Positions 1 to 2,231 are shown, counted from the stretch's first letter. The stretch: 7,797 bases of DNA from a virus (IMGVR_UViG_2778261360_000013:1-7797), one strand, 5' to 3'. Notes: a model not told the origin generated them from the sequence alone. Program-made: numbers and translations.

Positions 1-905
1 TCATTTGTTGATTTCAATTTTGTCCCATTCTCTCCCTCGGCTGTCCCTATACCGCGCCGCCATTGAATCTGATTTATGTCCGAGAAGGCGTTGAGCAAAC
101 TTATCGCCAATCTGATTGCGGTATAGTCTCGCCGACAGGCTACGCAGTTCATGGAATGTTGGCGGGTCTCCATCAAATGAGAGTCCAGATGCATTTCTCG
201 CCTTTGTAAAATACTTCGATACTGTTTTCGGGGAAAGTGGTTCGTGATGCGTTGATGCAATTATAGTGTCACTGCCGCTGGCCTCCCTGCATTTCTGTAG
301 TATATCAGCCAATGAGATATTGAGCGCGTCAATCGTTAGCGTCAGCGGAATGGCGAGCTTAGCCCCTGTTTTACCCTGTTCAATGTGAAGATGGTTGTCG
401 TTTATGTCTGACCATTTCATTTTGCACAAATCGCCGACTCTCTGACCTGTAACGACGGCCAAATCCATCGCAAGCCTCAGCCAGATTGGGAGAGGTTCGG
501 CTGCATGGTGAATCGCGACATACTCATTAGCTGTCAGCCTTGAGCGCCTTACTTCTGACTTTGCTGTGCGGGTTGCTGTTACCGGATTCGTAGCCACATG
601 CCCCTCGGCTATTGCCTCACGAAAAACGTCAACAAGGGTTGACCTGATTAATTTTGCGGAAGCCGCTTTACCTTCTGCTACGTAGGTGTTTAGCATTGCT
701 GCCACCTCTTTCGTTGATATGTCAGCGAGCGGTTTGTCCGGCAATTTTCTTCGGATTGCCCTGATTTTGCTGGCGTAGTCGAGTAGAGTTTTCGGCCTGA
801 TACCCCTCTCGCTGAGGATTGTTTCATATCGGTCAAGCCACGCATGAAGAGTGATTGCGTCAGCGCCTTTAATTCTGTCTATCAGTGACTCACGCCTGCT
901 CCCGG
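1..905 (-). pseudogene. int: Lambda-family tyrosine integrase, 5'-truncated; the N-terminal ~50 codons are missing and replaced by the IS911 left end
   Basis: Minus-strand translation (...TLHAWLDRYETIL...HELRSLSARLY...LLGHKSDSMAARYRDSRGREWDKIEINK) is near-collinear with lambda Int as I recall it, including the C-terminal catalytic region. The stop codon is the complement of 1..3. Similarity stops at the 905/906 IS boundary; the first 24 codons of the 325-aa track ORF ([24 protein letters not shown]) are encoded by IS sequence. Confidence 0.85.
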
Positions 906-977
906 TGTAGTGGCACACTGAATTTGGCCACCTGAACAGAGGTGATATGCTCACCTCAGAACAACACAGGTGCTCCA

Positions 978-1280
978 ATGAAAAAAAGAAATTTCAGCGC
1001 AGAGTTTAAACGGAAATCCGCTCAACTGGTTGTTGACCAGAACTACACGGTGGCAGATGCCGCCAAAGCTATGGATATCGGCCTTTCCACAATGACAAGA
1101 TGGGTCAAACAACTGCGTGATGAGCGTTAGGGCAAAACACCAAAAGCCTCTCCGATAACACCAGAACAAATCGAAATACGTGAGCTGAGGAAAAAGCTAC
1201 AACGCATTGAAATGGAGAATGAAATATTAAAAAAGGCTACCGCGCTCTTGATGTCAGACTCCCTGAACAGTTCTCGATAA
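978..1280 (+). pseudogene. IS911 OrfA (helix-turn-helix transposition regulator) with an in-frame amber codon at 1128..1130
   Basis: ATG at 978 gives [50 protein letters not shown], then TAG. The same frame continues after the TAG as [49 protein letters not shown] to a TAA at 1278..1280. My recollection of canonical IS911 OrfA has CAG (Gln) at this codon. The track ORF start at 942 lies inside the IRL and is an artefact. Confidence 0.8.
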
Positions 1281-1306
1281 TCGGGAAACTCAGAGCGCAT
1301 TATCCT

Positions 1307-2146
1307 GTGGTCACACTCTGCCATGTGTTCGGGGTTCATCGCAGCAGCTACAGATACTGGAAAAACCGTCCTGAAAAACCAGACGGCAGACGGGCTGTAT
1401 TACGCAGTCAGATACTTGAGTTGCATAACATCAGCCATGGTTCTGCCGGGGCAAGAAGCATCGCCACAATGGCAACCCTGATAGGCTTCAGAATGGGGCG
1501 CTGGCTTGCCGGCAGGCTCATGAAAGAACTGGGACTGGTCAGTTGCCAGCAGCCTGCGCACCGTTATAAACGAGGTGGTCGTGAACATGTCACTATCCCG
1601 AATCACCTTGGGCGGCAGTTCGCAGTGACAGAGCCAAATCAGGTATGGTGCGGCGACGTGACGTACATCTGGACGGGGAAACGTTGGGCATACCTTGCCG
1701 TTGTTCTCGACCTGTTTGCAAGGAAACCGGTAGGTTGGGCAATGTCGTTCTCTCCGGACAGCAGACTGACCATCAAAGCGCTGAAAATGGCCTGGGAAAT
1801 CCGCAGTAAACCAGCCGGGGTAATGTTCCACAGCGATCAGGGCAGCCACTATACAAGCAGGCAGTTCCGGCAGTTACTGTGGCGTTACCAGATCAAACAG
1901 AGTCTGAGTCGACGAAGAAATTGCTGGGATAACAGCCCGATGGAGCGCTTCTTCAGGAGTCTGAAAAACGAGTGGATACCGGTGACGGGTTACATGAACT
2001 TCAGCGATGCTGCCCATGAAATAACGGATTATATCGTTGGGTATTACAACGCGCTCAGGCCGCACGAATATAACGGTGGGTTGCCACCAAATGAATCGGA
2101 AAACCGATACTGGAAAAACTCTAAAGCGGTGGCCAGTTTTTGTTGA
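1307..2146 (+). CDS. IS911 OrfB frame (DDE transposase catalytic domain), normally made as an OrfAB fusion by -1 frameshifting at 1229..1235
   Basis: Frame is -1 relative to OrfA. DDE motifs are visible ([19 protein letters not shown], and E in [13 protein letters not shown]) and the stop lies 8 nt inside the right IR. The true OrfB frame opens upstream of the 1307 ATG, near the slippery site. Confidence 0.85.
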
Positions 2147-2154
2147 CCACTACA

Positions 2155-2231
2155 GTCCTCGACGGATGTTTACTACCGTATCCAAAGCGGCATTGATGGC
2201 GATCGGGCAGGGCGTCAGGAGGGCAGCATGA
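2155..2231 (+). pseudogene. 3'-terminal remnant (~25 codons) of the nin-region gene upstream of ninE, truncated by the IS911 right end
   Basis: Open frame ...[24 protein letters not shown] ends with TGA overlapping the ninE ATG (ATGA at 2228..2231), the usual nin-region gene packing. The 5' part is replaced by IS sequence. Which nin gene this is (ninD or ninC) I cannot confirm. Confidence 0.4.

Follow-up and report, generated by a model that had tools for sequence, protein, structure and literature searches.

An IS911-like element joins a truncated int to the nin region

The window analysed here, a stretch of 7,797 nucleotides, is an exact substring of the draft E. coli contig NJZW01000013.1 (GCA_002461335.1), in which it occupies positions 3317-11113 (L021); the prophage remnant there extends as a whole from 3317 to 12084. 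Its first 905 nt (1..905, minus strand) are the 3' part of a lambda-type tyrosine integrase gene, int, colinear at 98.5% with positions 636-1540 of a prophage in strain SLK172 (L009), whose coordinates we use as reference for the breakpoints of all deletion alleles. The first 169 nt of int (56 codons, rather than the roughly 50 given in an initial annotation that had correctly recognized the truncation) are absent. These codons encode the arm-type DNA-binding domain: Pfam detects the Phage_integrase, SAM-like and central domains in the window, whereas Arm-DNA-bind_1, which covers residues 1-68 of a full-length homologue, is missing, and RefSeq annotates the homologue of the truncated gene as 'missing N-terminus'. 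An insertion sequence (IS) of 1,249 bp follows directly on the plus strand (906..2154), delimited by its inverted repeats, its transposase domains and ends common to other copies. Beyond it lie the 3' 77 nt of a phage N6-adenine methyltransferase gene, dam (2155..2231, plus strand), colinear with L009 from position 16758. The intact gene spans 16307-16834 in L009, is annotated by RefSeq in the related locus L001 and, in its full-length homologue, matches Pfam Dam and TIGR01712. In this phage family, dam occupies the interval from ninB to ninE, and its stop codon overlaps the ninE start. The right flank is therefore a gene tail within the nin region, as initially described, but the gene is dam and not a nin gene proper.

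The retained nin-Q block spans 2228..4463 on the plus strand and comprises ninE (2228-2410; Pfam NinE), ninF (2407-2577), ninG (2570-3181; Pfam NinG), a Ser/Thr phosphatase gene (3178-3843; Pfam Metallophos) and the Q antiterminator gene (3840-4463; Pfam Antiterm), all annotated by RefSeq in L001. A lambda-type tyrosine integrase, nin region and Q are thus present in lambda order, as judged by Pfam and by synteny with L009, and the source contig reads int'-IS-'dam-ninE-ninF-ninG-phosphatase-Q-...-holin'-nleG-...-espJ. A look-up of the NinE protein showed that it is very widespread and returned the usual cI-O-P-ninB-dam-ninE context. Scanning positions 800-2700 revealed no promoter-like site and a lone terminator-like match on the minus strand, with no plus-strand terminator-like site found between orfB of the IS and ninE; no exact-protein record was found for the open reading frame that fuses int' to the IS.

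The IS begins at 906 (TGTAGTGG...) and ends at 2154 (...CCACTACA), with the left inverted repeat IRL (TGTAGTGGCACACTGAATTTGGCCACC) at 906..932 and the right inverted repeat IRR at 2128..2154, both given on the plus strand. The right terminus reads GGTGGCCAGTTTTTGTTGACCACTACA, and the 27-nt repeat is imperfect (74% complementary) with TG...CA ends. Identical ends occur in the copies L003, L005, L117, L120 and L121, and copies with unrelated flanks fix the boundaries. Translation reveals orfA (978..1280, plus strand) and an open orfB frame (~1226..2146, plus strand) encoding a DDE/rve catalytic domain (Pfam rve, 4.5e-31; NCBIfam transpos_IS3, 1.3e-92), linked by an A AAA AAG slippery heptamer (1229..1235, plus strand), read from the sequence, for -1 programmed frameshifting from orfA to orfB; homologous copies carry the RefSeq annotation 'programmed frameshift'. 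In the window copy, orfA contains an in-frame TAG at 1128-1130 (codon 51), a private change, as the codon is CAG in 4/4 other copies aligned there (L001, L003, L004 and L005). This stop would cut short both the OrfA and the OrfAB transposase, and the copy is probably non-autonomous. Copies of the IS differ from one another at 3-10 positions; the window copy carries 6 private substitutions in 1,249 bp, and the adjoining int' differs from L001 at 1 position. The window copy itself appears to be decaying through its orfA nonsense codon while its ends are intact and other copies persist in related genomes, including a further copy on a plasmid of strain 2022H047.

The element resembles the prototype IS911 of Shigella dysenteriae in its length (~1,250 bp), TG...CA ends, orfA/orfB organization with an A AAA AAG -1 frameshift and DDE/rve transposase, as well as in the 3-bp duplications at simple insertions of the window-type element. 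It differs from IS911 in its terminus (TGTAGTGG versus TGAAGTGG), in two further IRR changes and in being 1 nt shorter, and the window copy differs additionally in its orfA nonsense codon and lack of a duplication. Its IRR is identical to the published IS911 IRR at 33/36 positions (PMC2909936), a comparison based on that 36-nt repeat and one primer, so that 'IS911-like' is the safer name. In RefSeq, homologous copies go by no more specific name than 'IS3 family transposase'; on plasmids, ISEc52 (~88%) is the closest relative with a PGAP name. The element had initially been called a complete IS911 with both inverted repeats: the repeats and ends are as described, but the coding sequence is not intact and the name holds only as IS911-like.

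The element lacks a target-site duplication

The triplets on either side of the IS are CGG on the left and GTC on the right, and the adjoining 4-mers (CCGG versus GTCC) differ too. Up to the very edge of the IS, each flank runs colinear with an uninterrupted gene (cccgg/atagc in int, ttcatca/gtcctcg in dam, the slash marking the joint), so that no shifted boundary yields a 3- or 4-nt duplication. With the ends fixed by other copies and the flanks colinear, the absence of a duplication that had been noted from the triplets alone is confirmed, also under alternative boundaries of the IS. This absence is informative because simple insertions of the element duplicate 3 bp: in complete genomes, three simple insertions of the same 1,249-bp element are bordered by perfect duplications, TTC in ugd (L117), CCG (L120) and CGA (L121). 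Conversely, for copies without a duplication that lie between prophage or chromosomal genes (the window, L003, L005 and L116), the flanks were non-contiguous in 4/4 cases examined. The copy on pO157 (L119) lacks a duplication as well.

We also scanned GTDB species representatives for IRL; the matches came mostly from a Sodalis metagenome-assembled genome (MAG) and other genera. Copies with both ends showed a 3-bp duplication in 0/18 cases, 15 of these 18 coming from Sodalis sp. MAG C12_2. As this outcome could be due to the assembly of MAGs or to rampant recombination of the IS, we dropped the scan as a baseline in favour of complete E. coli genomes. The same MAG (L024-L098) contains dozens of IS copies with an identical 39-nt IRL; rearrangements driven by the IS in the genome of a symbiont, or chimeras of MAG assembly, could lie behind the lack of duplications among the copies with both ends.

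Relatives at the same site retain the early region

The same chromosomal site, mdtA/ibs-yegL, is occupied in SLK172 by a near-intact lambdoid prophage (L009), which begins with int, xis, early-left genes, exo, bet, gam, kil and cIII and continues with a LexA-family repressor, a cro-like gene, cII, O, P, ren, ninB, dam, ninE ... Q. The window flanks map to L009 positions 1540 and 16758, and the 15,217 bp between them are absent from the window; ~2 kb of this interval is an IS100 specific to SLK172, and we put the loss at ~13-15 kb. The comparison with an intact prophage at the same attachment site thus places early genes between the two points, and it bears out the initial proposal that the early region between int and nin had been lost entirely, as xis through ninB sit there in L009. 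Another relative at this attachment site (L008) also carries int, xis and early genes, and the mdtA-int-xis region is present at full length in at least 60 genomes, a few of which have another IS in int, with 82 genomes covering at least 80% of it. In strain 14EC007 (L010; similar matches H115, H121 and H131-134), a different IS3-family element (AL1L pseudoknot, ~1.3 kb) interrupts the same int ~370 nt before the gene's 3' end; the 6 kb read there still contain xis and, at the least, the first few early-left genes that follow.

No repressor (cI/cro) or replication (O/P) gene was found in the whole remnant (L021 3317-12084), whereas both sets are present in L009. The gene content of the source contig hence agrees with the earlier statement that the remnant has no repressor and no replication module, and an element without an immunity or replication module is a remnant rather than a functional prophage. 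Lacking Xis, the arm-binding domain of Int, a repressor, N, O and P, it would be locked in place and non-inducible, and we infer that it is unable to excise, replicate or be induced.

The joint is inherited in complete genomes

Both junctions occur in three complete E. coli genomes, 2022H047, 2022H048 and DCE7, and in each of them the chromosomal neighbours are the same. Identity at the left junction is 100% in 3/3; at the right junction it is 100% in two and 98.8% in DCE7. In DCE7 (L004 6240-9435), IS30 and ISEc21 later struck this IS copy at this joint, showing that the joint is older than those insertions, inherited and real. The exact int/dam juxtaposition without an IS was found in 0 of 5,426 complete E. 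coli genomes.

Sister prophages lost the early region by several routes

Searches for loci with a similar arrangement recovered further alleles in which the early region is deleted (breakpoints in L009 coordinates). At the mdtA site, the allele shared by the window source, 2022H047/048 and DCE7 joins int 1540 to dam 16758 through the IS911-like element in plus orientation without a duplication (CGG/GTC). Strain Z1323CEC0015 (L005) joins int 1556 to ninB 16023 through an IS911-like element, also in plus orientation and without a duplication (GTT/GAC), and RM14723 and its relatives (L003) join int 1614 to P 15047 through an inverted IS911-like element, again without a duplication (TTA/CTA). At the yfaT site, where target-site duplication is not applicable, PE164 (L002) joins xis 1767 to dam 16517 with no element and a TAC microhomology, O111:H8 (L122) joins 2461 to dam 16783 with no element, and 08_3449 (L123) joins 2577 to dam 16754 through an IS91-family element at a GTTC target. 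In this last allele (~5267, NZ_CP074909.1), the IS91-family element adjoins the dam tail after GTTC, 4 nt from the IS911-like joint of the window.

The three IS911-like alleles lie on different nin mosaics (L003 is without dam, and L005 has an extra gene after ninE), and therefore none of them is a simple ancestor of another; as read from these mosaics, the alleles would represent recurrent, independent events. The L002 and L122 breakpoints differ from those of the window, making them independent deletions that do not contradict an IS-associated loss in the window. Because sister prophages have lost the region without an IS or beside an IS91-family element, the early region can go by other routes, and its loss is recurrent and proceeds by several routes in this prophage family.

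In 2015C-4136CT1, an L003-type strain, a second IS copy (L116; NZ_CP027550.1 1586459-1587707) links truncated remains of a tail-tube gene and of yegL, again with no duplication. By annotated strands, the two IS copies are in direct orientation, with the rest of the prophage between them. Comparison of the flanks of these two copies revealed no reciprocal triplets of the kind expected from IS-mediated inversion.

The left joints of the three IS-bounded alleles, whose nin mosaics differ, all lie in a 74-bp stretch of int (L009 1540-1614). We discount this clustering of endpoints in part because the searches favoured loci with int and ninE within ~4.4 kb of each other. The 20 nt to the left of IRL (window 886-905, TGACTCACGCCTGCTCCCGG), which are native int sequence, resemble the 20 nt to the left of an old IS911 relic in the CFT073/HH97 chromosome (L006/L007 ~3001-3021, TGGCTGACGCC-GCTCCCGG). 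Random 25-mers scored as high in 0 of 400,000 trials. The likeness could reflect a target preference or coincidence; the motif is absent from the flanks of other copies of the IS. An extended reading would take the int 5' end as a preferred IS target and, together with at least six independent deletion alleles (IS911-like, IS91-family and IS-free), envisage a recurrent and possibly selected 'grounding' of effector-carrying prophages through sequence-directed targeting; we consider this unlikely.

An IS-associated deletion best accounts for the joint

Under the reading we favour, an IS911-like element entered a lambdoid, effector-carrying prophage sitting between mdtA and ibs/yegL, and a second transposase-chosen junction then formed in the same orientation ~13-15 kb away. 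One possible route is a direct intramolecular strand transfer, known as an adjacent deletion; the other is a local hop, after which the two direct copies recombined. Either way, the intervening DNA would have been lost and a single IS copy left between int on the left and dam on the right, and it is because these flanks derive from two different genes that no 3-bp duplication would be expected. The deletion would have taken the arm-binding domain of int and most of dam, together with xis, the recombination genes, kil/cIII, the repressor and cro/cII, O, P, ren and ninB, and spared ninE-Q and the nleG/espJ cargo.

The initial annotation had proposed either an IS-promoted adjacent deletion or recombination between two IS911 copies, and this is supported by the position of the IS on the joint, the lack of a duplication and the presence of the missing segment in intact relatives. 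As the IS lies exactly on the joint, formation of the joint and the IS are linked, and overall we regard an IS-associated deletion of the early region as highly probable. A transposase-driven or local-hop adjacent deletion has by itself close to an even chance, and recombination between two independently acquired IS copies is a somewhat less probable but serious candidate. These two are indistinguishable here. Among 5,426 complete E. coli genomes, searches with chimeric queries found no simple insertion at 1540 or 16758, and neither the reciprocal junctions (IRR-CGGATAGC... and ...TTCATCAGTC-IRL) nor a relative keeping two IS copies around an intact segment was present. Polymorphisms between IS copies (3-10 differences) gave no signal of a hybrid element. 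With no intermediate found, we can only infer the order of the junctions and the sub-mechanism.

Comparable deletions have been described for other IS3-family elements. [quoted passage not shown] These cases resemble the window in that the IS is kept at the novel joint, no duplication is present and kilobases are lost; they differ in that the copy present beforehand is known there, as is the time course, whereas neither junction of the window is identifiable as the original one. Copy-out-paste-in chemistry alone removes no donor DNA, and how such an element gives rise to deletions, possibly with IEE, is debated (bioRxiv 10.1101/2023.06.07.543989).

The best-surviving alternative is a stepwise history, in which the early region was first deleted independently of any IS and the IS then inserted nearby, trimming only some hundreds of bp from one side or from both. 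IS-free joints do exist in the sister prophages L002 (1767 to 16517) and L122 (2461 to 16783), and since these were placed just outside the window breakpoints, IS-associated trimming of ~0.5-1 kb would erase them. Yet these alleles sit at a different chromosomal site, yfaT, and differ in their ninE-ninG mosaic, which has a hypothetical gene inserted as well as an HNH gene; their dam-ninE segment shows no special affinity to the window (95.4% identity, against 96.4-96.8% for L009 and L005), and among the matches inspected, the mdtA site showed no deleted allele free of an IS. We judge such a history improbable. Still less probable is a single event in which a double-strand break or a deletion joint captured the IS and the usual staggered cleavage of the target did not take place. 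The IS does sit at the exact centre of the joint, no duplication is present, and a class of events with an IS at the centre of a deletion has been proposed for IS5 and IS481; however, the same study classed all of its IS3-family (IS150) cases as ordinary adjacent deletions (PMC11708052), and no sequence feature separates break capture from the IS-associated deletion favoured here.

Two further explanations can be set aside as extremely improbable. The window comes from a draft contig and the IS is multi-copy in related genomes, which would allow for a chimeric assembly across the repeated element, but both junctions recur, at 100% (left) and 98.8-100% (right) identity and with unchanged chromosomal neighbours, in three complete genomes that were finished independently, which effectively refutes an assembly artefact. 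The idea that int and nin were juxtaposed from the start in a phage mosaic without any early region, the IS being a passenger, draws only on the general mosaicism of lambdoid phages and is refuted by the gene content of relatives at the same site, which have full int, xis and early genes (up to dam in L009), by the breakage of both flanking genes mid-codon-series at the IS and by the missing 3-bp duplication that a passenger insertion would leave.

The remnant as a case of prophage decay

Lambdoid prophages of E. coli are known to be disabled by deletions and IS insertions that hit int, the repressor and the replication genes but leave the cargo in place (PMC2669165, PMC6379469). The window resembles defective or 'grounded' prophages such as the Sp prophages of O157 Sakai and DLP12, Rac and Qin of K-12 in that early genes are disabled and cargo is retained, and differs from them in being another prophage (mdtA/ibs-yegL, with nleG/espJ cargo) with another IS and other breakpoints. 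A close analogue is DLP12 of K-12, which keeps int-xis and ninE-rusA-Q with an IS3 copy between them. The finding is ordinary prophage decay of an already known kind, a clean example of a textbook process that leaves current understanding unchanged. Loss of the early region would explain why the nleG/espJ-carrying element is fixed, its effector cargo being inherited like a chromosomal gene, and the repeated loss of this region by several routes in one prophage family fits selection against inducible prophages.

Other changes in the remnant

The remnant also contains a second, IS-free deletion (window 6465-6547), in which the first 132 nt of the holin gene are joined to the region upstream of nleG. 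This joint passes through ~81 nt of unassigned sequence, and the lysis, head and tail genes are missing; L008 has the same holin' joint but retains a tail tip'-lom-tail fibre segment. At window position 5194, within a STM1630/TfpB-family gene (4701-5458), a 1-nt deletion relative to L001 splits the gene into open reading frames of 172 and 80 aa. Finally, nleG (window 6600-7300, ~110 differences) and Q (3400-4400, ~30 differences) are far more diverged from 2022H047 than the near-identical rest, a pattern of substitutions that suggests local recombination or allele replacement.
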